NCBI GenBank assembly: GCA_005223035.1
Contig: NJBK01000004.1
Coordinates: 40,577 to 104,576 of the forward strand
DNA from: Chloroflexi bacterium B3_Chlor
Lineage (GTDB): Bacteria; Chloroflexota; Anaerolineae; UBA7937; B3-Chlor
Reading direction: 5' to 3'
Length of the DNA: 64,000 bases
Of this stretch, positions 1 through 14,307 are shown in pieces. Below the pieces are notes generated by a model that ran no database searches, had not been told where the DNA came from, and saw only the letters and a list, made by a program, of their open reading frames with translations. The position numbers and the translations under genes were made by a program. Every line of letters starts with the position of its first letter. Within the stretch, counting starts at the first letter, position 1.

Positions 1-395
1 CCTTCGAGCTGGCCTAGGGTTCGCCAGATGCGTTGGACATGGGGTTAGGGGCCTGAATCTGAGCCCCTAACCCCCCATAGCCGACAGATCCAAAACGCGC
101 GGGGTCAAACATAGTGACCTCATTCAGTGCCGAGGCCAGCGTTCCGCCCGGTGATCGTACGTCCTCTGTCTAGCGCTTGATCACCGTCATTGAGCATGCT
201 CGTCACGACCAGATGGGCGCTGGTGTAGCCTGGAGCGTCGCTGGCAGACGAAATCTAGGTAGATGGCCCGGCCAAGGTGGGGATGAGACGTTGGTCAGTA
301 TGCAGTCGCTGCTGTTCAAGGCCGAGGTGGGTCAACGTTCAGCTGGCCGATGCGTACAATTGAGGGCACGAGCATGAGGAAAGGAGGTTGACAGA

Positions 396-818
396 ATGAG
401 CCCAAGGGCAAGAAAAGACAAGGACATAGAGAGTGGAGTAGAGGAGACCACGGTGGCCACCAAGATGGAAGCTGCGGCCGAGACGTCGGAAAAAGCCGCT
501 GGGGTGGACGCCGCGGGAGAGGGAGAGGAAGAGTCAAAGGCCAAGACGGACACCGTAGCGGCGGGTGAGAAGAAGGCTGGCAAGAAGCGTGCCAAGAAAG
601 TGAACCTCAAGTCTCTGGCCAGGAACCTGTATCAGATGGGACTGGACCTCGGTCTGCCACCCGATGAGGCTGCTCTTCTGACAAGCGAGACGAAGCTTCC
701 CGCCTTTGTCAATCAGGAGGCCGAAGAGGAGTTCAAGGAGGGGTTGATCGAAGGCTATCAAGAAATGCTCAATGAGCGTGTGCAAAACCTCAAGCACCAA
801 CTGGGTGTTGGCGGCTAG
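396..818 (+). CDS. small acidic/lysine-rich protein ending in Gly-Gly (candidate ligatable tag or substrate)
   Basis: ATG at 396 is preceded by AAGGAGG (383-387) with an 8-nt spacer. The ORF is 140 aa. The N-terminal ~70 aa are low-complexity E/A/K-rich; the C-terminal half looks helical and ends ...NLKHQLGVGG followed by TAG. Confidence 0.5.
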   Translation: MSPRARKDKDIESGVEETTVATKMEAAAETSEKAAGVDAAGEGEEESKAKTDTVAAGEKKAGKKRAKKVNLKSLARNLYQMGLDLGLPPDEAALLTSETKLPAFVNQEAEEEFKEGLIEGYQEMLNERVQNLKHQLGVGG

Positions 819-860
819 GACGGCAGTTTGGCGCTGTGAGCCGGTTGAGCGAACGGTGAG

Positions 861-2150
861 ATGAAAGAGCCCATCCTCTTTCGTCGCGATGACACCCTGA
901 CCCACGAGCAGGCCATGTACTGGAAAGACCTGCTGTACCGCACGGTCAAGATTGGCACCGAGGTGGAGTTCGCCCTGCCCAAGGGGGTTCAGAAGAAGGA
1001 CTTCATGCCTCTTCTGGTGGAGGCGCTGCTGCCCACGCAAGATCTCTCCAACCTTGGCCCCCTGGGCGTGTACGAAGTAGTTGATGAGCATTGTGGCCTG
1101 GAGATCCAGGTCATCGGCCGCCAGCCGTATTATACGGCCCTCATTGACCAGTACTACCGCCTCTTTGCCACCTTACCCAAGGGCATCCGTGCTCGGCCCA
1201 CCTGTGGACTGCACTACCACGTACTGACCATTGGCCTGTCGGAGCCGGTGCCGGACATCATCCTGGCCAACGTTTGGAATCTGACCCGCCGCTATGCTCC
1301 CTATCTAAGATTCCTGACCAGCGCCGGAGACAAGCCCGAAGCCCTGTGCCGTCGCCGCAACTACAACTCACACCTGGAGATGGTCAAACTGACTCCGTTT
1401 CCGATGACCATGGCCGAGATTCAGCAACGGCTGCGTGACAGCCGGGCGGTGCCGGAGCACAACAACTTCCTCAACCTGGAGAACATCGTTTTCAACGAGG
1501 ATGGTTCCATCAAGGTCTTTCACTACGAGAATCGCTTCCCCGATGCCGACCTGACGCCGACCTCGATTGTGGCCAAGATTTTCATGTTCCTGGCCATTCT
1601 GCTCAAGGCGGTGGAGATGAGCCAGTACGGGGTGATTCATGTGGGGCGCATCAACGAGTGGCGGCGTAAGGTGGAACTTCTCCATCTGTTGAGCAACAAC
1701 TCCGGCAATCTGGCTACCAGCGACACCAGCGGAGTGACGGAGGAGGTGATTGAGGAATTGCGGGCGGGGTGCCGGGAGATGTTGGACTTGACAAAACCGG
1801 TGTTCGCGCGCTTTGAGAGCAATCCCAGCTTTGAGGTGCTTTCTCTGTTGGCCGAGACGCCCATCTCGCTGCTGCGGGCCAGCGGGCGCGACTGGGATGA
1901 GATCGAGGATCTGTTGGCGGAGAGGGCGGCGATGGAGGCGGGAGCGCTGGATAAGACCGACCACTCGCTGATCAGGTGCATCGAGTTGGCGGAGTTGGGG
2001 GAGCAACCCACTCTGGAAGCGTGGAAGTGGGCCGTAGCGTGGGACTTACGGCTGACCCCCCAGGAGTTAGAGCGCCGACTGGAGCGCCTGGAGCGCCTGC
2101 GTCGAGTGCAGTGGGACGGGGATCTGGGGACGATCATCTTTTTGACTTGA
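861..2150 (+). CDS. carboxylate-amine ligase superfamily protein (glutamine synthetase / GCS2-like amidoligase)
   Basis: 429 aa. Carries the ordered motifs IGTEVEFAL (ExE strand), GLHYHV (HxH) and GSIKVFHYENR (ExR) that mark the GS/GCS2/Amidoligase_2 fold. Lies 42 nt downstream of the Gly-Gly protein gene. Confidence 0.6.
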   Translation: MKEPILFRRDDTLTHEQAMYWKDLLYRTVKIGTEVEFALPKGVQKKDFMPLLVEALLPTQDLSNLGPLGVYEVVDEHCGLEIQVIGRQPYYTALIDQYYRLFATLPKGIRARPTCGLHYHVLTIGLSEPVPDIILANVWNLTRRYAPYLRFLTSAGDKPEALCRRRNYNSHLEMVKLTPFPMTMAEIQQRLRDSRAVPEHNNFLNLENIVFNEDGSIKVFHYENRFPDADLTPTSIVAKIFMFLAILLKAVEMSQYGVIHVGRINEWRRKVELLHLLSNNSGNLATSDTSGVTEEVIEELRAGCREMLDLTKPVFARFESNPSFEVLSLLAETPISLLRASGRDWDEIEDLLAERAAMEAGALDKTDHSLIRCIELAELGEQPTLEAWKWAVAWDLRLTPQELERRLERLERLRRVQWDGDLGTIIFLT

Positions 2151-2176
2151 AGGACTAGAGAAGAGGACTGGAGAAG

Positions 2177-2995
2177 ATGTGTGGTCTGGCAGGAGTTCTG
2201 CTGTGTCCAGGCGAACGGACAGTCGAGCAGTGGCAGCGCCTAAGAGAAGCCTTTACCCAGAACCTGGTGTCCAACGAAGAAAGAGGGCGAGAGGCGGCGG
2301 GAGTGGCCCTTGTCCGGCGAGACGGCACTTATGAGTTGTTCAAAGAGCCGGTGCGGGCCTCGGAGTTGGTGAGGGCGCAGGGGTACCAGCGGATCATGTC
2401 GTTGTTGGACGGCGAGACAGTATCTCTGCTGGGCCATGCCCGGCTGCCGACAAAGGGCAGTCCCTGGAACAACACCAATAATCACCCGTTGATGGTGGGA
2501 CACATAGTTGGTGTCCATAATGGGATGATCTTCAACGACGACGAACTCTTTGGCACCTTCGGGTTCCCTCGGCTGGGGGAAGTGGATAGCGAGGTGCTGT
2601 TCTGGCTGCTGAACAGCGTCCATCCCTTGAACAACGATGGCAATTACCTGAGCCTGGTGGGCAGACGGATGGAGATGGTGCAGGGGACGTTTGCGCTGAT
2701 GGCGGTGGACCTGCGCCGACCGACCGCTCTGGTCGTGGTTAGAGGCATGATGCCGCTGTGTTTGCACTACGAGAAGTCGCTGAATGCGCTGTTCTTCTCC
2801 TCGCGCTATGTGTTTCTGCGCAAGCTCTTCGGTGACGCGGTGATGACCGAATTCGTGGAGCCGCAGCAGGTTTCCTACTTCGATGCCGGGCATCTGCTTG
2901 AGAGGCAGGACCATCCGTTTTGTTCGGTCAAGTTCGCCCTCGGTTCTTGGCGGCGAAGAATAGAGGAAGAGAGGACAGAGGGCTCAAGAGTGTAA
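2177..2995 (+). CDS. class II (Ntn, N-terminal Cys) glutamine amidotransferase-like amidohydrolase
   Basis: Starts MCGLAGVLL, so Cys becomes the N-terminal nucleophile once Met is removed. Stand-alone 272 aa GATase-2-type domain, 26 nt after the ligase gene. Confidence 0.7.
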   Translation: MCGLAGVLLCPGERTVEQWQRLREAFTQNLVSNEERGREAAGVALVRRDGTYELFKEPVRASELVRAQGYQRIMSLLDGETVSLLGHARLPTKGSPWNNTNNHPLMVGHIVGVHNGMIFNDDELFGTFGFPRLGEVDSEVLFWLLNSVHPLNNDGNYLSLVGRRMEMVQGTFALMAVDLRRPTALVVVRGMMPLCLHYEKSLNALFFSSRYVFLRKLFGDAVMTEFVEPQQVSYFDAGHLLERQDHPFCSVKFALGSWRRRIEEERTEGSRV

Positions 2996-3073
2996 GGATC
3001 GGCGGCCCCAGTCTCCCTGCTGCGGTCCAGCGGGAGTTCGGCGTCGCGAGGGGCAAAATGGAGGAAGAGGAGT

Positions 3074-3373
3074 ATGGCAGCCATGAGTGGTCGTCGTCAG
3101 CTCCGCTCTGTTGAGGTCCAGAACCCGTGGCACAGCGGGTCGGAGTCGGTGGAGACGCTCGAACGACGAGACGGTCACTTTCCGCACTTGTTTCTCTGGC
3201 GGGGACGGGAGTATGAGGTGCAGGCGGTGGAGCGATGCTGGACCATCTGCCGCCGTGAGCAGGGAAACCGCGTGGAAGGCTATTGCTTCCGTCTCCGTTG
3301 CCAAGAGGGTACCTTTTACCTGTTCGAGGACGCGCGGGCTGGAACCTGGCACATGCGGCGACGGGTGCGGTGA
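3074..3373 (+). CDS. hypothetical protein (99 aa)
   Basis: ORF with a purine-rich SD (GGAGGAAGAGGAG) just upstream of ATG 3074. No recognisable domain. Confidence 0.3.
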   Translation: MAAMSGRRQLRSVEVQNPWHSGSESVETLERRDGHFPHLFLWRGREYEVQAVERCWTICRREQGNRVEGYCFRLRCQEGTFYLFEDARAGTWHMRRRVR

Positions 3374-3627
3374 GGACCCAATTCGTTCGGCCTTAGAAGA
3401 TATCGTAATTCGAAGCCCGGCATCCAGTCGATGGGGAAGAGCCGCCGCCTGTGCTCTCTCAAACTCGCTATCGATTTCTGGGAGCGAAGGACAAAGTGCC
3501 ACGTGGTCGCTGAGGACGAAGGTGCAAGGATTGAGCGGGGATCAATTGCTGGAGCCAGTGACATGCGTCTTGTGGCTGTAGACACCGTTTGGCAAATCTG
3601 GTCACTGACTTGATGGGGATAGGAACC

Positions 3628-3999
3628 ATGAAGGAAGAACGGAGAAGAACCGCCCGTGTCCTCGTTGAGCATCTGGTATCTTATGTTGTCTTGGACGAGC
3701 GGGGAGGAACGGACGAGATGGGCATGGCGCGCACCCTGGACCTGAGTGAGGGAGGCATCGTGTTGGAGATGACGCATTCCCTTGATAGGGGCTCCCACCT
3801 TGAGATGAAGATGGTCAGTGGTGATCATATCCTGGAAGCCAGAGGGCTGGTTGTGTACAGCAAGTACCTACCTGACTACTTACCTGACAACCGTTGGCGC
3901 GTGGGCGTGTCCTTCACCGAGATCACTGAGGGCGATCTGGCCACAATCGCTCAGGAGGTTGAAGAGCGTCGTATGCAGGAGACCAGGGGAGATGCCTGA
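3628..3999 (+). CDS. PilZ domain c-di-GMP-binding protein
   Basis: N-terminal RxxxR motif (MKEERRRTARV) and the D-x-S-x-G-G motif (DLSEGG) diagnostic of PilZ. Alternative ATG at 3613; the ORF track starts at TTG 3589. The stop overlaps the next gene's ATG (ATGCCTGA). Confidence 0.7.
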   Translation: MKEERRRTARVLVEHLVSYVVLDERGGTDEMGMARTLDLSEGGIVLEMTHSLDRGSHLEMKMVSGDHILEARGLVVYSKYLPDYLPDNRWRVGVSFTEITEGDLATIAQEVEERRMQETRGDA

Positions 4000-4507
4000 G
4001 CAGAGAGTGAGTTTCAATGAGGAGCAACTTGAGAGGATGGAGGCCTGTCTTGAGAATCTGCTGACCAAGAGCAAAGGGGTGGCGGTTCTATTCGCCAGCG
4101 CCGAAGGTCAGCCATTTGGACAGGTGGGCAGCCTCAGTGATAAGGACAGGATGGCGCTATCCACCTTGGCTGCGGGTAGCTTCGCGGCCACTGTGGCCAT
4201 GGCCAAGTTGTTGGGACAGGCTGGAGCATTCCAGCAACTCTTCTTTGAGGGCCAGGAGCACAGTGTCTACTCCTCGGCTGTGGGTGAAGGGTCCCTTCTT
4301 ACCATCGCCTTCGGCAGCAGCGCAAAGCCTGGCTTGGTGAGACTCCTGGCCCGGGAAGCCACAAACGAGCTACTGGAGATCGTACGCGAGGCCCGGGAGC
4401 AAGGGATGGAACAGTCTGTTGAGGACCTAATACACGCTGAGTTCGGCGAGTCTTTGGCCGACGAACTGGATGCCCTATTCCCGGAGGGAGGGGAAGGTAT
4501 CGAGTAA
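3992..4507 (+). CDS. Roadblock/LC7 (MglB-like) domain protein
   Basis: MPEQRVSF start overlaps the PilZ stop. Roadblock-type alpha/beta core (GVAVLFASAEGQPFG...AAGSFAATVAMAK). Confidence 0.65.
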   Translation: MPEQRVSFNEEQLERMEACLENLLTKSKGVAVLFASAEGQPFGQVGSLSDKDRMALSTLAAGSFAATVAMAKLLGQAGAFQQLFFEGQEHSVYSSAVGEGSLLTIAFGSSAKPGLVRLLAREATNELLEIVREAREQGMEQSVEDLIHAEFGESLADELDALFPEGGEGIE

Positions 4508-4530
4508 GGCGCTGCCGGCAAGGAGTTGCG

Positions 4531-4905
4531 ATGGCTGACGGTATCGACCGGCTGTTAGAGGAAACTCTGCGGGGGTTGCGACGGGTTTCGCCGTATGTGG
4601 TAGGTTCGGCGGTGGTTACGGGCGATGGATTTGTGGTCGCCTCTGAGCTACCCGATGAGAACTACGAGAAGAAGGTGACGGTGATGGCCATGGCCATGCT
4701 GACCATGGGGCAGGAGGCTACTGGTGAATTGGGTTCCAGCGATGTGGAGCGGGTCTTGGTGGAGAGCAAGGATAGCTACATCGTGATGGTCAACGCTGGC
4801 CCTGGCGCAATTCTGGCCGCTGTTGCGGAAAAGGAGATCATCTTGGGTCTGCTCTTTGTGGCCATCAAGGAGACAGTGGCCAAAGTCAACACACTGCTGT
4901 ACTGA
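4531..4905 (+). CDS. Roadblock/LC7 domain protein
   Basis: 124 aa. VVTGDGFVVAS...AMAMLTMGQEA pattern typical of Roadblock/LC7. Confidence 0.7.
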   Translation: MADGIDRLLEETLRGLRRVSPYVVGSAVVTGDGFVVASELPDENYEKKVTVMAMAMLTMGQEATGELGSSDVERVLVESKDSYIVMVNAGPGAILAAVAEKEIILGLLFVAIKETVAKVNTLLY

Positions 4906-4918
4906 GGTAAGAGGCCAT

Positions 4919-5329
4919 ATGATGGACGAGAGACCTGAAGGAGCTACGCGTACAGGCGAACCCACTCTAAACCGGATCTTGCGAGAGATGAACGATGAGG
5001 GGCATTTCAAAGCATCGGTCTTGGTCAGCACCGAGGGGTTGCCCCTCTCGTCCGCGTCTTCGCCCTTTGATACTGAAACAATGGCGGCTATGGTAGCCCT
5101 GGTCAAGAACACGATCCAGCAGGCCAGGGAGCATATCGGGTTGGATGAGATAGACGAGGTCTCCATCGTTCAAGGTGACAAGATGCGCCTGATATGCCGG
5201 TACCTCGTCGTCGGGGACGAAGAATTGATACTGTCTGTTATCGCCCCACCTCATCAGACCTACCGGCGCCTGACTAACCGGGCTCTTAGGGAGATCAAGC
5301 GCGTCTGGAGAAGGATCTACGTAGCTTAA
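4919..5329 (+). CDS. Roadblock/LC7 domain protein
   Basis: Starts at internal ATG (MMDERPE). ASVLVSTEGLPLSS...TMAAMVALVKN is Roadblock-like and paralogous to 8110-8493. Confidence 0.65.
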   Translation: MMDERPEGATRTGEPTLNRILREMNDEGHFKASVLVSTEGLPLSSASSPFDTETMAAMVALVKNTIQQAREHIGLDEIDEVSIVQGDKMRLICRYLVVGDEELILSVIAPPHQTYRRLTNRALREIKRVWRRIYVA

Positions 5330-5349
5330 CTCTGGGCCAGACTTACGAG

Positions 5350-5622
5350 TTGTTGGCGGGCGCTCGGATTGAGATCGCCAGCTTGGTCACCGGCGGAGAC
5401 CCCATTTTGACAGAACATCTGTTGATAGACCCGCCAGCCGCGGCCTGTGCGGGGCAGGGTTTGAATATCGAGAGGCCTCACTCATTCGCGGTTGTGCTGC
5501 TAAGATTGAAGGAGAAGGTGACGGGCACGCTGACTCCGATGAGCCGTGTATGCCACCAGTTCACCCCTCAAGACGTGGGACTACTGAGTTCCATCGGCAG
5601 CCAGATCCGGTTAGCCACGTAG
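5350..5622 (+). pseudogene. GAF-domain C-terminal remnant (no ATG start)
   Basis: The translation SFAVVLLRLKEKVTGTLT...FTPQDVGLLSSIGSQIRLA matches the C-terminal half of a GAF domain. The frame opens only with TTG, and the N-terminal half of the domain is absent. Confidence 0.3.
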
Positions 5623-5685
5623 AACGCACGACTCCGTGATGAGACGAGACGACGGCCGCAGGAACTCTCAGCGATAGGAGAGATC

Positions 5686-7644
5686 GTGGACGAGCATTCA
5701 TCCACGTTGGATTTCCAGAAGGTGATAGAGCTGGTGCTCGACAAGGCGATGCAGGCCACAGATGCCTCGGCAGGGGCCATTGCCGTAGCTAACGAGGAGA
5801 GAACCGGGCTTCTCTTGCTCGCGCACCGGGGTTACCCTGGCCAGGCGGATGCCAAGAGACCCTGGCGGTGGCGCATCGGGACGGGAATAGTGGGAAGGGT
5901 AGTCAAAACGGGTGAACTCTCCCTGGTAAACGATGTCAGCCAAGACCCTGACTACGATGACTTTGTCCCGGAGACCCAGTCTCAACTCACTGTGCCCATC
6001 ATTAGAGAAAATGAGGTGGATGGGGCCATAGTCCTGGAGAGCCCCCGGCTGGCAGGTTTCAGTAGAGGGCAGACAGGCTTCGTTCAGCATCTGGCGGAGC
6101 ATGCGGCCGTGGTCATGGGCAACGCACGGTTGAGTCAGCGACTGATGGAGTCGGAGGAGAGATACCGCATCTACGTGGAGAACGTCCCCTGTGTCATCTG
6201 GGAGGCGGATACCGAGAGTCGCTTCACCTACTGCAGCCCTCAGATCGAGAAGTTGATAGGCTACACTGCTGAAGAACTAGTCGGACACACTCCATACGAG
6301 TTCTTGATACACGCCGATGACGCTGACAAGTTCAAAAAGAGAGTTCGCCAGATGTCAAGAGAAGGAAGAGACGAATACACCTTGCGCCACCGGGCATTGC
6401 ATAGAGATGGTTCCATCCTGCATATCGAGGTAGGCATCAAGCCGGTGTGGGATGACGCTGGCCGGGTGGTCAAGTATCGAGGCGCGGCGCGAGATGTGTC
6501 GCAGCTGGTTGAACTCCAGGCGCAACTCATCCAGTTGGCCAAGCTGTCGGGTATCGGCCAGATGATCTGTGGCGTGGCCCACGAACTGAACAACACTCTG
6601 ACTACGGTCATGGGATACTCGCAACTCCTCCAAGTCACCGATGTGGATGAGGACGTCAAGGAGGACTTGCAGAGGATCTATGACGATGCCTTGCGAGCGC
6701 AACGCATCGTGCAGAACCTCCTCACCTACGCCCGTCAGAAGAAGCCAGAGCACGGGCCGGTAGACATCAATGAAGTCATCGAACACACCCTGGCTCTCAG
6801 GAGGTATCAACTGAAGGTGGACGACGTGGAGGTCGTCACGGAACTGGCCGAGAACTTGCCCTGGACCATGGCCGACAGCTATCGACTGCAGCAGGTCTTT
6901 CTGAACATCACCAACAACGCCCACCAGGCAATCCTCCAGATGGGTAAGGGCGCCTTGACCGTAAGGAGCGAACTCCTGGGTGACGATACTATCCGCGTAA
7001 CCTTTGCCGATACCGGGCCGGGTATACCGCCAGAGGTACTGGACAAGATCTTCGATCCCTTCTTCACCACCAAAGATGTGGGCGCGGGCACCGGGTTGGG
7101 ATTGTCGGTCTCTCACGACATCATTCAGGAGCACGGCGGACGCATCTGGGCTGAGAGCGAGCCAGGCCAGGGAGCGACTTTCATTGTCGAGTTGCCCGTG
7201 AAAAGCTGGCTGCGGGACATAAGTGTACCTTCTCTTGATGAGGAGTATGAGGGGCTACCCTCCAAGAGGCAGAGGATATTGGTGGTGGATGATGAGCAGA
7301 ACATCGTGGACCTGATAGTGGAGGTGTTGAAGGACAGTGGGTATCTGGCTGATGGCGTCACCAGTGCCGAGCTAGCCCTGAGGCTGCTGCACCAGCACAG
7401 GTATGACCTGATCATCTCCGATGTCAAGATGCCCGGCATGGACGGCCCTACCTGCGAGAAAGAAGTGAGGGCGATGGATCCAGAGTTGGCTGAACGGATC
7501 ATCTTCGTCACCGGTGACCTCCTGAGCCCCACTACACAGGCGTTCCTGGAGGAACGGGGGGGACCGTGTCTCGAGAAGCCCTTCGAACTGGAGGAGTTGG
7601 CGAGCCTGCTGAGGAGGGCGCTGAGCGACGATGAGGAGCGCTAG
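5686..7644 (+). CDS. hybrid sensor histidine kinase (GAF-PAS-HisKA-HATPase_c-REC)
   Basis: H-box HELNNTLTTVMGYSQLL, G2 box GTGLGLSVSHDIIQEHGGRIWAESEPGQGATF, C-terminal receiver domain (RILVVDDEQNIV...DLIISDVKMPGMDG). Confidence 0.85.
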   Translation: MDEHSSTLDFQKVIELVLDKAMQATDASAGAIAVANEERTGLLLLAHRGYPGQADAKRPWRWRIGTGIVGRVVKTGELSLVNDVSQDPDYDDFVPETQSQLTVPIIRENEVDGAIVLESPRLAGFSRGQTGFVQHLAEHAAVVMGNARLSQRLMESEERYRIYVENVPCVIWEADTESRFTYCSPQIEKLIGYTAEELVGHTPYEFLIHADDADKFKKRVRQMSREGRDEYTLRHRALHRDGSILHIEVGIKPVWDDAGRVVKYRGAARDVSQLVELQAQLIQLAKLSGIGQMICGVAHELNNTLTTVMGYSQLLQVTDVDEDVKEDLQRIYDDALRAQRIVQNLLTYARQKKPEHGPVDINEVIEHTLALRRYQLKVDDVEVVTELAENLPWTMADSYRLQQVFLNITNNAHQAILQMGKGALTVRSELLGDDTIRVTFADTGPGIPPEVLDKIFDPFFTTKDVGAGTGLGLSVSHDIIQEHGGRIWAESEPGQGATFIVELPVKSWLRDISVPSLDEEYEGLPSKRQRILVVDDEQNIVDLIVEVLKDSGYLADGVTSAELALRLLHQHRYDLIISDVKMPGMDGPTCEKEVRAMDPELAERIIFVTGDLLSPTTQAFLEERGGPCLEKPFELEELASLLRRALSDDEER

Positions 7645-8109
7645 CTGCTCCTCCTTCGGGAATCGAGGGCCAGTTGCCCGAACAGCCTCGGCGACGCGGT
7701 GGCAAGAGGTAGTGTGATCTGGTCGGAGTGTCCCCGTAACTGCAAGGCATCCTTTCATTGGACAAACAGCACGGGAAAGGAGACATAGCATCGCCGAGAG
7801 AGATGTGGCGGACAACGCGTGTTGTGTCTCTATCAGAGTGTACTGATTGTAGCTCTCGGGCGATCCAAGGCTCATCGGACCGCTTTGTGATGCTTGAACC
7901 GCCGTTGAGATTGAAGCGCCCCATACTGCAGAACGCAGACGATGATCCAAGTGCGGCTCGGCGGTACCTCGTGGCGGAACTAGAGGACAGGCAGATAGGC
8001 CGGCAACGAAAGACGAGGACGGAGCCACCTTTCTCATAGCTCCGCGACGAAGGTGATGAGGTGCGCTGGCAAAGTTTGTGCCCGGGTGCCGGCTACTCAA
8101 GTTTGCAGG

Positions 8110-8493
8110 CTATGATCCTTCGACCATAGCGTGCCAGGCCAGCTTGAGATCCTTGATAGCTCGGTTGGTCAGTTGTCTATAGTAGCGTCGGTGGCTGGGC
8201 ACCACAACGGCCAGGATGAAATCCTCACCGTTCATGGTGAAGCAGCGGCAGACCAGCCGTATGTGATCGCTGGCCCTGACAGAGACCTCGTCAACCTGGG
8301 CCAATCCGACATGCTCCCGTGTCTCTCGTGCCACACGTCTCAGCAGGGCGACCATTGCAGATGTGGTATCAACGTCATAGTCGGAGGGCACTGTGGCGAT
8401 GGGTAGGCCATCACTGCTTGCGAGCACCGAAGCCTCGAAGTCACCTTCTTCGTTTATCCGCTCCAAAGCCTTTTCGAGAGGTCTGTCTGCCAT
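8110..8493 (-). CDS. Roadblock/LC7 domain protein
   Basis: 127 aa Roadblock-like (ASVLASSDGLPIAT...TSAMVALLRRV). Sits 5 nt after mglA on the minus strand. Confidence 0.7.
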   Translation of the reverse strand: MADRPLEKALERINEEGDFEASVLASSDGLPIATVPSDYDVDTTSAMVALLRRVARETREHVGLAQVDEVSVRASDHIRLVCRCFTMNGEDFILAVVVPSHRRYYRQLTNRAIKDLKLAWHAMVEGS

Positions 8494-8497
8494 TGGG

Positions 8498-9070
8498 CTA
8501 GATTCTGGATACCACCAGGTTGATTGCTGCTTTCAAGGTCTCTATCACCCCTACCCCCTCTGTCGCCACAGACTGGAACTGAGGGACGCCGTCGCGGGCC
8601 AGCTGCATCTGCAGAAGTGCAACGGGGGCTCTCGTTGGCAGATCTCGCTTGTTGTACTGCAGAACGAGGGGAAAATCGTGAAGACTCACCCCCAGTGCCC
8701 GCAGGTTCTCCTCCAGGCTGCGCATGGTGTCCATGTTTGCCTTGAGCCTATTGAGTTGAGAGTCGGCCACATAGACCACCCCGTCCGCACCCTGCAGAAC
8801 AAGTCTTCGGCTGGCCACATAGCATGGCTGGCCCGGCACAGTATAGAGATTGAACTTGGGCTTAAGTCCTCGGATTCGCCCCAGTTCCAATTGCATAAAA
8901 TCGAAGTACAAAGTGCGATCACCTCTGGTCTTGAGGCATATTAGCTCTCCTCTCTGCCTGGGATTGGTCCTGGAGTGAATGCACTGCAAGTTGGTGGTCT
9001 TGCCGCTGAGAGATGGGCCATAATACACAATCTTGAGGTTGATCTCACGCATTTTCCAGTTGATGAACAT
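8498..9070 (-). CDS. mglA: MglA-type Ras-like small GTPase
   Basis: P-loop GPSLSGKTT. Collinear full-length near-identity, from memory, to Myxococcus MglA: FINWKMREINLKIVYYGP, DRTLYFDF, YTVPGQ, VVYVADSQ, LQYNKRDLP. Confidence 0.9.
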   Translation of the reverse strand: MFINWKMREINLKIVYYGPSLSGKTTNLQCIHSRTNPRQRGELICLKTRGDRTLYFDFMQLELGRIRGLKPKFNLYTVPGQPCYVASRRLVLQGADGVVYVADSQLNRLKANMDTMRSLEENLRALGVSLHDFPLVLQYNKRDLPTRAPVALLQMQLARDGVPQFQSVATEGVGVIETLKAAINLVVSRI

Positions 9071-9106
9071 GGTGCCCCCTACGAAAAATGCGGTGATCCC
9101 TCTCTA

Positions 9107-9589
9107 TCAAGCAAAGGCCTCATCTAGCCCCTGAGCCAGTGCGCCGCGAAACTCTCGGTCCACCACGGCGCTGGCCTTCTCCAGCCACGGTTCCAGCTCG
9201 GAGGCCACTTCAAGGAGTTCGTTGACTGCCAGTCTGGCGAAGATGCGCACCAAGCCGATTTGCGTCATCTCATCAAAGATGATAGCCAGCAAGAAACTCG
9301 CACCAATGGCAGAGATGTAGATGTGACGTCTCTGTCCCTCGTGGAAGAGGTAGGAGAATGGGGCTGGCTCGTCCAACTGTCTGGCTATCTCGGCGGTAGC
9401 AGCCATGTTGCTGGCGGTCAGCGCGGCGAGAGCGGACGTATCCAACCCCTCGTTGTTTCCTTTCTCACTGATCAGCTGTCCGCTAATGTCCGCCAACAGG
9501 ACGCACAGGGCCCTACTTCTATTGAGCAACCTGTCGAGACAGTTCTCTATCTTGATAAAGGGCTCACGAGGGGGGATCAGAGTTTCCAT
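9107..9589 (-). CDS. mglB: MglB-type Roadblock/LC7 GTPase-activating protein
   Basis: Immediately upstream of mglA on the same strand. Shows the GQLIS, D-TSALAALTASNMAA, FHEG and GLVR blocks seen in MglB. Confidence 0.8.
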   Translation of the reverse strand: METLIPPREPFIKIENCLDRLLNRSRALCVLLADISGQLISEKGNNEGLDTSALAALTASNMAATAEIARQLDEPAPFSYLFHEGQRRHIYISAIGASFLLAIIFDEMTQIGLVRIFARLAVNELLEVASELEPWLEKASAVVDREFRGALAQGLDEAFA

Positions 9590-9615
9590 CTTCCGTTTTC
9601 CTCATCAGTGGCTTC

Positions 9616-10782
9616 CTACTCTTCAGGCAAATCGTACCAGCGTCTAGCCTCGCCAATCCTGGCCCTTGCCTGCCAGCGCAGGGACTTTGGTGCAGCCTCG
9701 ATGATCTCACTCAGCTGACGGGCCCTTGAGACATAGACTTCCTTCTCCCGCGCCGGGAGGAAATCATCTACCAGGTCGATGCTTTTCTCAATGTTCAAAG
9801 TAACGGTCCTATACCAACCCCAGTCGTCGCCGCACGTGGAGGCGATGAAGTCTGCGTCCACCTTATGTACATTGTCTCCTTTGCCCAACTCGTGATCGTA
9901 GAGAATGGCGTAGATGTCCCTCAAATCTTTCTCTCCCATCTGCACGATCTGCAGTTTCGACAAGAGCAAATCTGCCAATGGAAGGGTGATCTCGTGCAGC
10001 TCGAGGCGGTTGGTGAAGGACAGTTGGTGACACATATGAAAGGTGTCCACAAATACATCCAAGGCGACACCTTCTTGGGGATCTGAATACTTCAAGCGTT
10101 TATGTCCATGGAAGGCGTTGAAGCGGCGGTGGGGTTCGTATCCCAGAGTCTCTATCACTTCCTCCAACCCTCGCCGTTGCCTACCATATACGGCAAGATC
10201 AAGATCAAGCCCATCAGGCGGCAAGGTCATGTCAGCGGCGCTGGGACAGATCGCCTTGACGGCTATGCCTCCCAAGAGGCGCAAATGGACGCCTCGATTC
10301 TCAGCAGCAGCGATGGCCTGGCGGGCACGAGTAAGTAGCAGGTCGGCGGCATCGGCCGGGAGTTCCGGCTCAATCACGGCCACCTCTTCAGCCGCCGCTG
10401 GAGGAGCGCTTGGGACCGGGGCCTCTCTTTCTTTCAGGATTTCAGAGAGCTTCCTCGCAGCCACGTTGGCGGTGAGGTTCAGAAGAGGGACATTTACAGT
10501 ACGCACGCAGAGGATATAGAGGCAGCCAACACGCAAATTCTTGACCACCATCCTCCCTTCTCCGAATACCAGATCCAACTCGTGGACCCTGCGCCGCCTT
10601 GTGGTCTCCAGTCCGTCGATGGTTTGCAGAATCGTGCGTGCTGCTGGCAAGAACGTGGCCTCATCGAAGACAGACGGCAGAGCACGGGCCACTAACCTGC
10701 CTTCGGGGTCGCAAACGAACGATCCGGTTACCCCCACGACGGCATTGATGTCCTGCAGTATCTTTTCCATGGTCGCCCCCAA
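9616..10782 (-). CDS. Roadblock/LC7 domain fused to a pol-beta-superfamily nucleotidyltransferase (NTP_transf_5-like) domain
   Basis: N-terminal ~120 aa are Roadblock-like (INAVVGVTGSFVCDPEGRLVARAL). The C-terminal part carries LRLLGGIAVKAICPSAADMTLPPDGLDLDLAVY...LGYEP, matching the hG[GS]...DhDh nucleotidyltransferase signature. Confidence 0.6.
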   Translation of the reverse strand: MGATMEKILQDINAVVGVTGSFVCDPEGRLVARALPSVFDEATFLPAARTILQTIDGLETTRRRRVHELDLVFGEGRMVVKNLRVGCLYILCVRTVNVPLLNLTANVAARKLSEILKEREAPVPSAPPAAAEEVAVIEPELPADAADLLLTRARQAIAAAENRGVHLRLLGGIAVKAICPSAADMTLPPDGLDLDLAVYGRQRRGLEEVIETLGYEPHRRFNAFHGHKRLKYSDPQEGVALDVFVDTFHMCHQLSFTNRLELHEITLPLADLLLSKLQIVQMGEKDLRDIYAILYDHELGKGDNVHKVDADFIASTCGDDWGWYRTVTLNIEKSIDLVDDFLPAREKEVYVSRARQLSEIIEAAPKSLRWQARARIGEARRWYDLPEE

Positions 10783-10786
10783 GGAA

Positions 10787-11476
10787 CTAGCCCAAGATCG
10801 TGGCCGCTTCGGCGCTAACCAGGGCCGGTGAAGCTTTCTCGCTCAACGACAAACCTGCAAAAAAGGCTGGCCGTTCTAGGATAAGCATTCTGTCTTTACC
10901 CATGGTAACCAGCCCCCAGTCAAAGGGCGTGAGACTCATGGCATTCCCGAACTCGGCGGCCGCATTGCCCACGAAAACGGCCACAGCGCCCTCCTTTTCC
11001 GGGTTGCCGTCAATGTCACTTGCGAAAACGATGCCATCGCGTGAGATGATGACTGATCCCTCGACGCCCATTACGTTCTTGAGTTCGTGAGCCAGAGTCG
11101 CCATCTCATCCGCAGCTGCCGGCAATTCCATCGCAGGTGCAACCTCTGCCGGTCGCTCAACCGAAGCTTGCTCTTCGTCCATGCGGCGTATTCCCTCCAG
11201 AAGGAGGCTGTTCCAGCTGGTGGAGACCGTTCTCTCGGACGGTATTGTACCGGCCTCCACAACGAAGGAGCCATCGGGCCAGCTCAGGAGTTCGTAGACA
11301 GCCTCTTCACCCACCACATCCCCCACCGCGGCATGAACGATGGCTCCGTCGGCGAAACAGATGATTCCCGTCTTGCCCTGGTACGTCAGAGACACCGTGG
11401 CGGTGTTCATCTCGGTACAATTAATCTGAATTATGTTCGTGAGGCCTAGCTCTTTGAGGCTTCCTTCAACAGGCAC
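10787..11476 (-). CDS. DUF4388 (PATAN-type) domain fused to a Roadblock/LC7 domain
   Basis: The N-terminus GSLKELGLTNIIQ...GKTGIICFADGAIVHA...GEEAVYELLSWPDGSFVV matches the DUF4388 consensus. The C-terminal ~110 aa are Roadblock-like (VEGSVIISRDGIVFAS). Confidence 0.6.
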   Translation of the reverse strand: MPVEGSLKELGLTNIIQINCTEMNTATVSLTYQGKTGIICFADGAIVHAAVGDVVGEEAVYELLSWPDGSFVVEAGTIPSERTVSTSWNSLLLEGIRRMDEEQASVERPAEVAPAMELPAAADEMATLAHELKNVMGVEGSVIISRDGIVFASDIDGNPEKEGAVAVFVGNAAAEFGNAMSLTPFDWGLVTMGKDRMLILERPAFFAGLSLSEKASPALVSAEAATILG

Positions 11477-12082
11477 TTACGTCTTCCTTTCCTTGGGCTG
11501 CTGTCGACTTCTCTTGCGCCAGCGCATCAGGTCTCCTTTTTGCGGTTCACCCGATCTCCGACTCTGCATCGGGGGCCGGCTCCTTTCCTCGAAGACGTCG
11601 TCCAGCTCCTTACTCAGAGACGCCGCAAAGTCGGAAGCAAGGGTCTCTCTAGGCTTGGTGGTTTCTGTCTCGGCGACGATGCGCAAGAGATCCTGGATGC
11701 TTCTCTTGATGTAGAGCCAGACCATACCGATCTTTGGTGCATATGTTTGCCTGTCGAAAACGAGGACTAGAAAGAGACCGCTGGCGATGTTGGAGGCGTA
11801 TATGTCGTATCGTTCGCCTTCGTGGAACGTAAGGTTGAAGGTTCTACGTGTCTCATTCAGCTGACGTGACATCTCGGAGGTCGTGGCGAAGCTGGCAGCC
11901 AAGAGGGAGACGATGGTGGTGATGTCCAAGTTCGCAGCACTCCCGGCCTGCGCGATGATCTGACCCATCGTATCCACCATAACCACGGCGGCAGCGTCAG
12001 CTTCGACAAGAAGCTCTCTTAGTCTTCTGGTAATGGCCTCCAGATATTCGCCTGAAAGAGATGAAACCCTTTTCTGCGCCAT
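11477..12082 (-). CDS. Roadblock/LC7 domain protein with basic C-terminal tail
   Basis: AAVVMVDTMGQIIAQAG...TTIVSLLAASFATTSE is Roadblock-like. First gene after the internal promoter at 12223-12251. Confidence 0.6.
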   Translation of the reverse strand: MAQKRVSSLSGEYLEAITRRLRELLVEADAAAVVMVDTMGQIIAQAGSAANLDITTIVSLLAASFATTSEMSRQLNETRRTFNLTFHEGERYDIYASNIASGLFLVLVFDRQTYAPKIGMVWLYIKRSIQDLLRIVAETETTKPRETLASDFAASLSKELDDVFEERSRPPMQSRRSGEPQKGDLMRWRKRSRQQPKERKT

Positions 12083-12222
12083 CTGCTTGTCTCCGCGGTA
12101 GATCGGAGGACGAAAAAGCCAGCCTTGTTTTCTTCAGCCCGACCCGAGCTGACCACTCAATTCGCTGCTCCCCCGGCAGCACATGGCATGCGGTCGCTTG
12201 AATCTGAGGGCTTCCAAACCAC

Positions 12223-12251
12223 AGTATACCACATTTCTAAGGGTATGTCAA
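12223..12251 (-). promoter_or_regulatory. sigma70-like promoter TTGACA-N17-TATACT, read on the minus strand
   Basis: Plus-strand tgtcaa at 12246-12251 and agtata at 12223-12228 are separated by exactly 17 nt. Lies about 140 nt upstream of the Roadblock gene that starts at 12082. Confidence 0.5.
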
Positions 12252-12311
12252 TATCACCTGCCTTACTTGAGACGCGGGGCATCTCCTTTGTCACCCCCGA
12301 AGGCGTTCAGG

Positions 12312-14126
12312 CTAGCCAGCACCTCTGGAGTCAGCGGGTAAGCGTACAGTAAAGGTCGAGCCTTCGCCCACCTCACTCTTGACTTCTATCCTCCCGCCAT
12401 GTCTTTCAACGATACCGTGGCTTATGGAGAGGCCTAGGCCTGTACCCCTTGCCTTAGTGGTATGGAAGGGGTCAAAGATGTTGGCCAGATCCGACACCGG
12501 GATCCCCTCTCCAGTATCGGTGAAGCTGATGCTTGCTTCACCACGTTTGTCATCCCAAACAGTGTCTATGTACAGGTCACCACCTTCGGGCATTGCTTCA
12601 ACAGCGTTGATAATGATGTTGAGAAATACTTGCTTGAGGAGACTGCTGAGGCCGTTCACCAGGGGCAATCGCGAGGTCGCGTGTCGATGCACCACTACCT
12701 GCGCGTGTTGGATTCTCTTTCCAGCCAGAGACAGAACATCGTCGAGAATGGCCTGGATATCTACTGGTGCCACGCTCTCCGTGGAGGGCCGATAGAAATC
12801 CAGTATGCGTTGCACCAGATCAATGAGTCTTTGGACCTCTTCTTGTGCCATGGAGAGATAATCCTGCCGTCTGCTCTCATCCAGGGAGGGCTTGTGAGTG
12901 ACCAGATGCAGACAGTTATGAATCGCCTGCAAGGGGTTGTTGATCTCATGAGCCAAGGAAGCAGCTAGCTTCCCGGTGGCGGCCAACTTCTCGGCCCTTA
13001 CGAGTTGGATCTGGGACTTCTCCAACTCGCGGGTGAACTCGGCAAGCTCAGTGTAGAGGCGAGCATTCTCCAGCGCGACGGCGACCGTAGCCGCCATGGA
13101 GTTCAACAGCTCCAGGTCTTCGTGAGTGAATTCCCCATCCAGTTTATTGACGAGTTCAATGGCTCCGATAATGTGGTCTTTGATCACCAGGGGTACGCAC
13201 AGGACGGAGCGGCACTCCAGGCCAAACTTCTCACTGGCTTCTCGATAATGGCGCGGGTCAGCACTCACCTCAGGAACCAGGACAGGTTCTCCCTCCTTGA
13301 CCACCCACCCAGCGATCCCTTGTCCTACCTGGAGCTTCAGCGGCGCGGTTTGTCGCACATCACCGTGCAGACTCATGCGAAAGACGAGTTCGTTCGTGGT
13401 TTCGTCAAATAGCAGGAGGGAGCCAGCCTCGGCCCTCACAATCTCATTGATACCCAGCATAGCCAGGCGAAGCACTTCATCGAGGTCAAGTGTGGAAATC
13501 ACGACTCGCCCCAGTTCATTCAGTGCAGCCAGTTGGCTGGTTCTGTTCTTGGTTGCCTCGTGGATGCGGGAGTTCTCGATGGCGATGGCAACTTGACCGG
13601 CCAAGACGGAGAGGAGTTCTAGATCATGGTCGCGGAAAGGGGAATCGGGGGTAGTCTTGCTGGCGTTCAGCACCCCGATGATTCGTCCTTTGATCTTGAG
13701 CGGCACACAGAGGGCGGAGGCCACGTCCTCTCGGTGCATGGCTTCGCGTACGCTAGGCTCAACCGGGGCGTCATCGGTTAGTAGCAAAGGCTCTCCGTTC
13801 TCGATCACCCAGCCAGATATTCCTTCCCCAATCTTCGCCTTGGCGGAACCTATGACCGCTTTGGGCAGCCCTACAGCAGCCTCGACGCATAGCTCTTGCT
13901 TCTTCTCATCCAACAACATGAGGGAAACCACATCAGCGCCGGTCTCTCGCTCAACGATCTCGAGGATGAGTTCGTAGAGGCGTTCAATCTCCACCTCGGA
14001 CAGTAGCGTCTCGCTGACCTCGAGGAGAGGCAGGAGAGCCCCAAGGCGCTCCCCATTCCGATACGGAGCCTGGACGTCTGGGATGTTCATGGTGGACATA
14101 ATCATCCTCCATTGGTATTCTATCAT
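12312..14126 (-). CDS. sensor histidine kinase (GAF-GAF-HisKA-HATPase_c)
   Basis: Two GAF-like regions, H-box HEINNPLQAIHNCLHL, G2 box GTGLGLSISHGIVERHGGRIEVKSEVGEGSTF. Alternative start at M10 (14099) with GGAGG 6 nt upstream; M1 has GAGGAAG 6 nt upstream. Confidence 0.85.
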   Translation of the reverse strand: MIEYQWRMIMSTMNIPDVQAPYRNGERLGALLPLLEVSETLLSEVEIERLYELILEIVERETGADVVSLMLLDEKKQELCVEAAVGLPKAVIGSAKAKIGEGISGWVIENGEPLLLTDDAPVEPSVREAMHREDVASALCVPLKIKGRIIGVLNASKTTPDSPFRDHDLELLSVLAGQVAIAIENSRIHEATKNRTSQLAALNELGRVVISTLDLDEVLRLAMLGINEIVRAEAGSLLLFDETTNELVFRMSLHGDVRQTAPLKLQVGQGIAGWVVKEGEPVLVPEVSADPRHYREASEKFGLECRSVLCVPLVIKDHIIGAIELVNKLDGEFTHEDLELLNSMAATVAVALENARLYTELAEFTRELEKSQIQLVRAEKLAATGKLAASLAHEINNPLQAIHNCLHLVTHKPSLDESRRQDYLSMAQEEVQRLIDLVQRILDFYRPSTESVAPVDIQAILDDVLSLAGKRIQHAQVVVHRHATSRLPLVNGLSSLLKQVFLNIIINAVEAMPEGGDLYIDTVWDDKRGEASISFTDTGEGIPVSDLANIFDPFHTTKARGTGLGLSISHGIVERHGGRIEVKSEVGEGSTFTVRLPADSRGAG

Positions 14127-14165
14127 CTTTCTTCCTCGTTGACAACAGTACTATTGTCCTAGTAG

Positions 14166-14180
14166 GCGCGCAATGCGCGC
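14166..14180. promoter_or_regulatory. perfect inverted repeat GCGCGCA-A-TGCGCGC in a divergent intergenic region
   Basis: Seen directly at 14166-14180, between the minus-strand kinase start (14126) and the plus-strand VIT-vWA start (14308). Candidate operator. Confidence 0.3.
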
Positions 14181-14307
14181 TGCGAGGGCCGTGGCTTCCC
14201 CATCGAAGGACCGGCTCGGGAACCTTTTGGTGGCTTTCTGCGTCTTGTAGTCGAAAGAGATCTAAGTGGGCCACAGGACCCCGACGCAAACTGAGAGGAG
14301 GCGAAAG

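Follow-up and report, generated by a model that had tools for sequence, protein, structure and literature searches.

A 64-kb stretch of contig NJBK01000004.1 from Chloroflexi bacterium B3_Chlor, hereafter the window, carries on its plus strand a cassette of four short genes that encode a PilZ-domain protein and three Roadblock/LC7 proteins, here named Rbl1, Rbl2 and Rbl3. A hybrid histidine kinase gene lies further downstream on the same strand, and the whole array converges on a minus-strand operon whose last genes encode a Roadblock protein (8110-8493), the GTPase MglA (8498-9070) and an MglB-like protein (9107-9589). An initial annotation of the region took the five plus-strand genes to be a single unit in which a cyclic di-GMP (c-di-GMP) receptor is coupled to Roadblock proteins and to a phosphorelay. 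Its domain calls hold: PilZ, the three Roadblock/LC7 domains and the GAF-PAS hybrid kinase all pass Pfam cut-offs. To compare, the window proteins were mapped onto about 50 related loci from assemblies and metagenomes (given below as L-numbers). PilZ, Rbl1, Rbl2 and Rbl3 are a conserved four-gene unit that is tied to genes for MglA-type GTPases within a narrow set of Anaerolineae from sediment, while the kinase appears to be a dispensable addition.

The PilZ and Roadblock proteins

The first gene (3628-3999, plus strand) encodes a single-domain PilZ protein of 123 amino acids, which matches PF07238 with an E-value of 6e-10 (39.8 bits against a cut-off of 22.5 bits) over profile positions 1-100 of 102. 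Its RxxxR motif reads R6-R7-T8-A9-R10 and its (D/N)xSxxG motif reads D38-L39-S40-E41-G42-G43. Across 28 homologs R5, R6, R10, D38, G42 and G43 are invariant and S40 is conserved in at least 90%. The AlphaFold2 (AF2) model, with a predicted local distance difference test score (pLDDT) of 85.7, has six strands and a helix in the canonical PilZ fold. Solved structures searched by sequence with the PilZ family profile gave no match; a fold search with the model did, and its top matches are c-di-GMP-bound PilZ domains, namely MotI, Alg44, YcgR and MapZ. The structural matches include 5xly_B, in which MapZ is bound to CheR1. Relative to L081, the ratio of non-synonymous to synonymous substitution (dN/dS) is 0.21. 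One loop of the protein contains a 12-nucleotide (nt) tandem duplication (YLPD YLPD, 3865-3888), which only one homolog, the 89% identical P0004, shares and which is absent in the other 26 aligned homologs.

The PilZ stop codon overlaps the Rbl1 start, as initially annotated, in the string ATGCCTGA at 3992-3999. Rbl1 (3992-4507, plus strand; 171 amino acids) is an MglB-like Roadblock protein that matches Robl_LC7 with 37 bits and an E-value of 3e-9. Its residues 6-167 align to residues 6-161 of Myxococcus xanthus MglB (6izw_B) with an E-value of 3e-15, the C-terminal acidic helix included. It has two paralogs in the window, at 9107-9589 and 11477-12082. Rbl2 follows after a spacer of 23 nt (4531-4905, plus strand; 124 amino acids) and is a classical short Roadblock/LC7 protein (Robl_LC7, E-value 5e-14), whose nearest solved relatives are a Thorarchaeota Roadblock protein (7f8m, 1e-13) and CvnB5 (3leq, 1e-3). 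It is 72-95% identical in relatives, with a dN/dS of 0.17. After another 13 nt comes Rbl3 (4919-5329, plus strand; 136 amino acids), a divergent Roadblock protein with a Robl_LC7 score of 27 bits and a C-terminal helix, YRRLTNRA...W, that is conserved in the family alignment. Rbl3 is paralogous to the minus-strand protein at 8110-8493 (43% identity) and has a dN/dS of 0.12. Its AF2 model (pLDDT 81.5) finds M. xanthus MglB as the best fold match, with template-modelling (TM) scores of 0.74-0.81, and p14/MP1 and LAMTOR chains are also among the structural matches.

All three Roadblock genes exceed the Pfam cut-off for Robl_LC7. They are not closely related paralogs. When Rbl1, Rbl2 and Rbl3 were searched against one another by tblastn, there was no match at E<=1e-3, and we therefore regard them as three subfamilies. 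For each subfamily a separate counterpart exists, either within the minus-strand operon or among relatives. We considered Rbl3 as an MglC homolog and rejected this assignment, as there is no sequence or profile match to MglC and MglB is the best structural match. MglC was matched neither by Rbl2 or Rbl3 in single searches against the sequences of all solved structures (E<=1) nor by a joint profile of Rbl3 and the minus-strand protein at 8110-8493, called RblC below.

Conservation of the cassette and its linkage to mglA

The PilZ family to which the window protein belongs is tight, its 42 clusters spanning 53-99% identity. At 50% identity it amounts to two or three representatives among 1.84 billion proteins, beyond which there are just generic PilZ domains. 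Wherever a locus reaches at least 1.35 kb past PilZ, which is the case for 22 loci in 13 lineages, PilZ is followed by Rbl1, Rbl2 and Rbl3 in the same order (22/22). This bears out the proposal that PilZ and the Roadblock genes are one unit. The PilZ/Rbl1 junction is similarly close throughout the six gene-called lineages, with an overlap of 1-8 nt or a distance of 5 nt, and a fourth, Rbl2-like gene often stands next after Rbl3 in relatives.

Conservation beside mglA, which the initial annotation had named as a check, was found in a form that it had not anticipated. Linkage of the unit to mglA is constant. Directly upstream of the cassette, and on its strand, 16 lineages have a group-1 mglA paralog whose product is 60-65% identical to the MglA of the window. 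A small HisKA_3 kinase gene usually stands before this paralog, and a gene for a PATAN protein is often inserted between mglA and PilZ. The relatives thus have the order HisKA_3 kinase, mglA, optional PATAN, PilZ, in which the cognate GTPase gene is immediately upstream; this part is lost in the window. The convergent arrangement seen in the window, in which the cassette faces a second mglA operon on the opposite strand, recurs in 7/11 lineages with room for it, and in L091 and L113 it is shared as far as a VIT-VWA gene beyond the operon. The group-1 signatures DRT and TVPGQ are common to all mglA paralogs.

In four loci (L104, L110, L112 and L114), about 17 kb is taken up by a supercluster in which three group-1 mglA paralogs occur together with seven or more Roadblock genes and three or four genes for PATAN proteins. 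A HAMP protein, a pair of HisKA_3 mini-kinases, the GAF-GAF kinase, and a GAF-PAS kinase accompanied by an OmpR-type regulator are encoded there too, making it an unusually dense island of small-GTPase signalling. A narrow PilZ hidden Markov model run over all fetched loci found the same PilZ family only.

The hybrid kinase is not conserved with the cassette

The kinase gene (5686-7644, plus strand) encodes a soluble hybrid histidine kinase of 652 amino acids with the Pfam architecture GAF-PAS-HisKA-HATPase_c-REC, identical to the 652-amino-acid NCBI product CEE40_01985 of Chloroflexi bacterium B3_Chlor. HisKA scores 50.9 bits, HATPase_c 108 bits and Response_reg 72.9 bits. The H-box (AHELNNT), DTGPGI, GTGLGL and ISDVKMPGMDG are all readable, so that the H-box, the N/G1/F/G2 boxes and the receiver aspartate expected of a hybrid histidine kinase are intact. 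Translation would start at a GTG, 5 nt after AGGAG (5676-5680). The gene lies on the same strand as PilZ, with no terminator-like site between Rbl3 and the kinase. One could therefore suppose, as the initial annotation did, that the kinase acts in one operon with the three Roadblock proteins and the c-di-GMP receptor, with the phosphorelay as their output; it might also be an input. Other kinases do recur in the superclusters, with HisKA_3 before mglA and GAF-GAF heading the convergent operon, and the actinobacterial conservon likewise couples a kinase, a Roadblock protein and a GTPase (PMC4316618).

Several observations make this unlikely. The near-abutting boundaries described for the array hold as far as Rbl3 and end there: the kinase begins 356 nt beyond Rbl3 (5330-5685), and this spacer is a pseudogenised relic left by the 5' part of what was a longer kinase gene. 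It encodes the C-terminal half of a GAF domain in the kinase frame (a sub-threshold Pfam match to profile positions 62-132 only), interrupted by an in-frame TAG at 5620-5622. The TAG falls inside the motif AISNARL of L095, where the codon is TCG (Ser). L095, which comes from the same metagenome-assembled genome (MAG) as L083, has an 85% identical 652-amino-acid ortholog with the same ribosome-binding site and GTG behind the same relic, in which there are two frameshifts rather than the TAG. We also considered the TAG as an error or a site of read-through and set this aside as of little consequence, as only half a GAF domain lies upstream of it and L095 is frameshifted there.

Conservation of the linkage also differs from that of the cassette. 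This kinase gene follows Rbl3 only in the window and in L095, and in none of 17 loci (11 lineages) that have at least 3.4 kb of downstream sequence. The sibling strains L081, L082 and L100 lack window positions 5507-7896, and with them the entire kinase and most of the relic. The end points of this 2.39-kb deletion coincide with an imperfect direct repeat of 16 nt, GCTGCTAAGATTGAAG (5496-5511) and GCCGTTGAGATTGAAG (7901-7916), which suggests that recombination between short repeats removed the kinase in L081-type strains. Full-length relatives of the kinase, 65-72% identical and 867-1138 amino acids long with extra N-terminal PAS/GAF domains, belong elsewhere. The two with readable contexts (P0046 and P0049, in L096 and L097) are in a different, unrelated two-component locus, where an OmpR-type regulator comes next and another kinase gene after it; in L096 this second kinase is a HAMP kinase. 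The kinase dN/dS of 0.48 is still below 1, yet it is about 2-4 times that of its neighbours (0.12-0.30 for PilZ, Rbl2, Rbl3, MglA and the neighbouring Roadblock genes). To judge from these comparisons, the gene is most plausibly the 3' 60% of a longer gene, encoding a kinase of 1040-1140 amino acids from elsewhere, that was joined behind Rbl3 in a recent ancestor. Because the ribosome-binding site and the GTG are kept, expression from this new start may persist. With its 5' end lost, its constraint relaxed and its linkage to the cassette not conserved, the kinase appears dispensable and not integral to the cassette, and the claim of its membership in the unit falls.

Loss of the upstream mglA, duplication and decay

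Upstream of PilZ lies a conserved leader of 89 nt (3539-3627, plus strand; no Rfam match), which is the left limit of homology with close relatives. In blastn comparisons with L081, L098, L101, L102 and L103, homology starts at window position 3539 each time, whatever stands further upstream. In L101 and L102, whose PilZ proteins are 89% and 83% identical to that of the window, mglA and PATAN remnants are still present upstream of PilZ. The window instead has a DUF6504 gene, a class-II amidotransferase-like gene and a gene for a 429-amino-acid protein without a family match. The window cassette has lost its own upstream mglA along with the replaced upstream part, which leaves the convergent gene at 8498-9070 as its nearest mglA.

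Strains of the L081 type (L081, L082, L083, L098-L100 and L103) have two tandem copies of the cassette, at 1210-4750 in L081. The upstream copy is decayed: next to a kinase gene it retains Rbl1 and Rbl2 intact, while mglA, PilZ and Rbl3 are reduced to fragments. In the downstream copy PilZ, Rbl2 and Rbl3 are intact and Rbl1 has an internal deletion of 310 nt. Between the copies is a 105-nt fragment of the 429-amino-acid gene (window 1781-1885). Over both copies, one PilZ, one Rbl1, two Rbl2 and one Rbl3 are intact. Such complementary decay, which leaves one full set, argues that all four cassette functions are needed.

The same history raises the possibility that the window cassette is a redundant duplicate heading for loss, with no specific function since its own mglA is gone. 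The upstream kinase and mglA are missing, the closest strains have fragmented copies and the internal Rbl1 deletion, and the same MAG has a second Rbl3. We find this reading very improbable. All four open reading frames are intact in the window, dN/dS values of 0.12-0.21 for PilZ, Rbl2 and Rbl3 indicate purifying selection, and the decay in L081-type strains still leaves a full set. The second Rbl3, P0165 (CEE40_11875), is 85% identical to the window Rbl3 and lies on another contig of 17.5 kb. It has the substitutions V81F, R94P and M58V at sites that are invariant or nearly so in the Rbl3/RblC family, and none of these is found in the window Rbl3. P0165 is either a decaying paralog or comes from a second strain binned into the MAG.

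The convergent mglA operon and its surroundings

In order of transcription, the minus-strand operon encodes a GAF-GAF kinase, an MglB-like protein, a PATAN protein, a 388-amino-acid protein, a further MglB-like protein, MglA and an Rbl3-type Roadblock protein. The first gene (12312-14126) specifies a GAF-GAF-HisKA-HATPase kinase of 604 amino acids by Pfam, and L091 and L113 have orthologs of 72-76% identity at the corresponding place. It is followed by the MglB-like protein at 11477-12082 and by the PATAN/DUF4388 protein at 10787-11476, which has a sub-threshold Roadblock match; these two genes and the next (9616-10782) were annotated with Pfam and NCBIfam. The 388-amino-acid product of 9616-10782, which lies between the PATAN gene and the mglB-like gene, has a sub-threshold match of 21.8 bits to NTP_transf_5, an uncharacterised nucleotidyltransferase family, and occupies this place in L001, L002, L084 and L091 as well, at 65-90% identity. 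The gene order across 9616-12082 is the same in L001, L002, L084, L091 and L113.

The MglB-like protein immediately upstream of mglA (9107-9589; 160 amino acids) matches Robl_LC7 with an E-value of 1e-9 and aligns over its full length to the NCBIfam MglB model. MglA itself (8498-9070; 190 amino acids) is encoded by the sole mglA gene in the window and aligns over its full length to M. xanthus MglA (217 bits) and Thermus thermophilus MglA (212 bits). By the criteria of PMC4316618, which are an intrinsic arginine beside the G2 threonine, TVPGQ and NKxD, it is a group-1 GTPase. The motifs D51-R52-T53 (G2), T77-V78-P79-G80-Q81 (G3) and N140-K141-x-D143 (G4), the last of which reads NKRD in the window, are invariant in ten sequences comprising this MglA and the paralogs of relatives. 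The operon ends with RblC (8110-8493; 127 amino acids; Robl_LC7 28.5 bits), which is kept directly after mglA in L001-L004, L081, L084 and L091. A terminator-like hairpin on the minus strand (8019-8045), with a 10-bp stem and then a T-rich tail, lies 65 nt downstream of this gene; it is a pattern match only. Scans for promoter and terminator consensus sequences otherwise gave counts near the shuffled expectation, leaving this hairpin as the sole plausible site, and an Rfam search of positions 1-16000 gave no match and so no c-di-GMP riboswitch or other known RNA.

On the other side of the cassette, the gene for the 429-amino-acid protein, which has no Pfam, NCBIfam or PDB match, is followed by that for the class-II glutamine amidotransferase-like protein, which starts MCG (together window 861-2995, plus strand). 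The same pair occurs in L005 (10777-12815), L006 (14165-16232) and L024 (13002-14688), at 70-74% and 51-60% identity, respectively. In these loci, from two Anaerolineaceae MAGs and one 'Deltaproteobacteria' MAG, it sits a few kb downstream of MglA/Roadblock/PATAN clusters. The pair may be a further, uncharacterised member of MglA/Roadblock neighbourhoods. The remaining window is chromosomal housekeeping, including uvrC and gyrB. It also encodes a 697-amino-acid protein (26560-28653, minus strand) with two cyclic-nucleotide-binding domains and a bacterial PH domain, a second-messenger receptor without an evident link to the cassette.

A possible function for the cassette

Taken together, our results lead us to favour the view that the cassette encodes a PilZ-gated regulator, acting as GTPase-activating protein (GAP) and scaffold, of a group-1 MglA-type GTPase, and that it is probably a variant of the MglA/MglB/MglC theme. 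Rbl1 would be an MglB-type GAP dimer. Rbl2 and Rbl3 may be accessory Roadblock proteins that stack on or scaffold Rbl1 in the manner of MglC with MglB in Myxococcus, where MglA-GTP controls the stacking of MglC dimers on those of MglB, a logic likened to that of Ragulator-Rag (PMC10329633). The overlapping stop and start codons could ensure that PilZ is made in a fixed ratio with Rbl1, and PilZ would bind Rbl1 such that GAP activity or localisation depends on c-di-GMP. As target we propose the directly upstream mglA product in relatives and, in the window, the convergent MglA or a GTPase encoded elsewhere. The c-di-GMP binding, the PilZ-Rbl1 contact, the GAP function and the identity of the MglA target are all inferred from genes and models.

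Several findings weigh against this proposal. Against NF052242, the NCBIfam equivalog model for MglB, Rbl1 scores 54 bits, below the cut-off of 200 bits, which is why we call it MglB-like and not MglB. The mglA-adjacent protein at 9107-9589 likewise reaches merely 68 bits, and so the model, which is named for Thermus-type MglB, appears to be narrow. With the cassette's own mglA gone, the nearest mglA in the window is the fifth gene away from Rbl1 and on the opposite strand, more distant than the four genes within which an MglB gene has been counted as coupled to mglA (PMC4316618); in the relatives mglA is one or two genes upstream of PilZ, within that distance. The Rbl1-internal deletions and fragmented copies in sister strains indicate that parts of the system are eroding in the sublineage. 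Regular-expression searches of the 64-kb window for GGDEF and EAL motifs gave no credible c-di-GMP enzyme, and no motility genes were found there. The idea of second-messenger input into an MglA polarity module, put forward in the initial annotation, thus stands in its linkage of PilZ, Roadblock proteins and MglA, whereas the word 'polarity' was extrapolated from Myxococcus. The host clade is narrow and uncultured, and what we propose for the fields of MglA polarity and c-di-GMP effectors would be a genomic inference.

A further point against c-di-GMP control comes from PlpA of Myxococcus, a single-domain PilZ protein that localises in an MglB-dependent manner and keeps MglA unipolar. PlpA retains the PilZ motifs and yet does not bind c-di-GMP in vitro; its motif mutants have no reversal phenotype, and it still localises through MglB (PMC8316039). 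Conservation of the motifs is therefore no proof of binding. By analogy, the PilZ protein studied here could be a c-di-GMP-independent adaptor that tethers or localises the MglB-like complex and conveys no second-messenger signal, for which the lack of a GGDEF motif in the window also speaks. We regard this as a serious rival with a real, if minor, chance of being right. Against it, the RRxxxR and DxSxxG residues are invariant or nearly so over homologs of 53-99% identity while the surrounding loops vary, and the PilZ model matches ligand-bound PilZ domains. Moreover, the absence of a cyclase covers 64 kb and not the whole genome. We retain c-di-GMP gating as part of the favoured reading.

It is conceivable, if rather doubtful, that this PilZ-gated regulator is part of something larger. 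The cassette might specify a c-di-GMP-gated, multi-layer Roadblock platform in which an MglB-like dimer carries an Rbl2/Rbl3 pair and PilZ serves as a ligand-sensing lid. Such a platform would decide where one of as many as three MglA paralogs is located in filamentous Anaerolineae, or whether that paralog is bound to GTP or to GDP. It would be embedded in the supercluster of about 17 kb that wires in histidine kinases and PATAN response regulators. If true, bacteria would possess a counterpart of Ragulator-type GTPase control that takes a second messenger as direct input and operates outside the known motility systems.

Even for Myxococcus, where the PilZ proteins PlpA and PixA affect MglA localisation, the contacts by which c-di-GMP would act on the MglA polarity switch are not known. 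That the overlap of PilZ with an MglB-like gene, an arrangement indicative of translational coupling, is kept across many lineages may be genomic evidence naming a direct partner, and the four-protein set is compact and suited to reconstitution. The cassette also suggests that multi-Roadblock assemblies around MglA exist outside Myxococcota. The clusters themselves are evolutionarily fluid, with duplication, complementary decay, and kinase capture and loss.

Comparison with known systems

Coupling of MglA and MglB genes, extra MglB copies, PATAN neighbours and kinase-Roadblock-GTPase conservons have been described (PMC4316618), in a study that does not mention PilZ. The literature on PilZ together with Roadblock proteins or MglB that we found consists of Myxococcus work only, and no PilZ-Roadblock or PilZ-mglB gene cluster is described in it. 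On the B3_Chlor MAG itself the literature searched yielded nothing. The actinobacterial conservon, composed of the CvnA kinase, the CvnB Roadblock protein, the DUF742 protein CvnC and the CvnD GTPase, resembles the clusters studied here in that a histidine kinase, a Roadblock protein and an MglA-family GTPase are coupled (PMC4316618), and Rbl2 weakly resembles CvnB5 (3leq, see above). However, the conservon GTPase is of group 2 (GTPGQ, NxFD) and that of the present clusters is of group 1 (DRT/TVPGQ). The kinases here are soluble, with GAF/PAS domains or a bare HisKA_3, rather than membrane HAMP kinases that carry an LPxR tail. The clusters here also include a PilZ gene, and none of the cluster genes has a Pfam match to DUF742. 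We therefore rejected the classification of the cluster as a conservon on account of its group-1 GTPase and the lack of a DUF742 gene.

A second comparison is with MapZ (PA4608) and CheR1. MapZ is likewise a stand-alone PilZ protein of about 120 amino acids, and its c-di-GMP-bound form binds and regulates the partner protein. Here the partner would be a Roadblock/MglB-type protein and not a methyltransferase, and beyond the PilZ fold no relation by sequence was found. The eukaryotic Ragulator-Rag system resembles the cassette in that several different Roadblock proteins are encoded with a small GTPase, a parallel drawn in PMC10329633 for the Myxococcus proteins. The likeness is one of fold and logic only, and a comparable stoichiometry and heterodimers would here be putative.

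The M. xanthus module of MglA, MglB and MglC together with PlpA (PMC8316039, PMC10329633, PMC4719450) is differently arranged. No RomR/RomX/RomY or Frz homologs were identified here, relatives of the window have three mglA paralogs in one supercluster, and the host is an Anaerolineae organism without documented motility. Both systems have a group-1 MglA with the intrinsic arginine and TVPGQ, an MglB homolog with a C-terminal helix, and additional Roadblock proteins, those of the cassette being comparable to MglC on MglB. Both also include a single-domain PilZ protein, which in Myxococcus is functionally tied to MglB. In Myxococcus, plpA and mglC lie outside the mglB operon, whereas in the cassette the PilZ gene overlaps the MglB-like gene and two further Roadblock genes come next.

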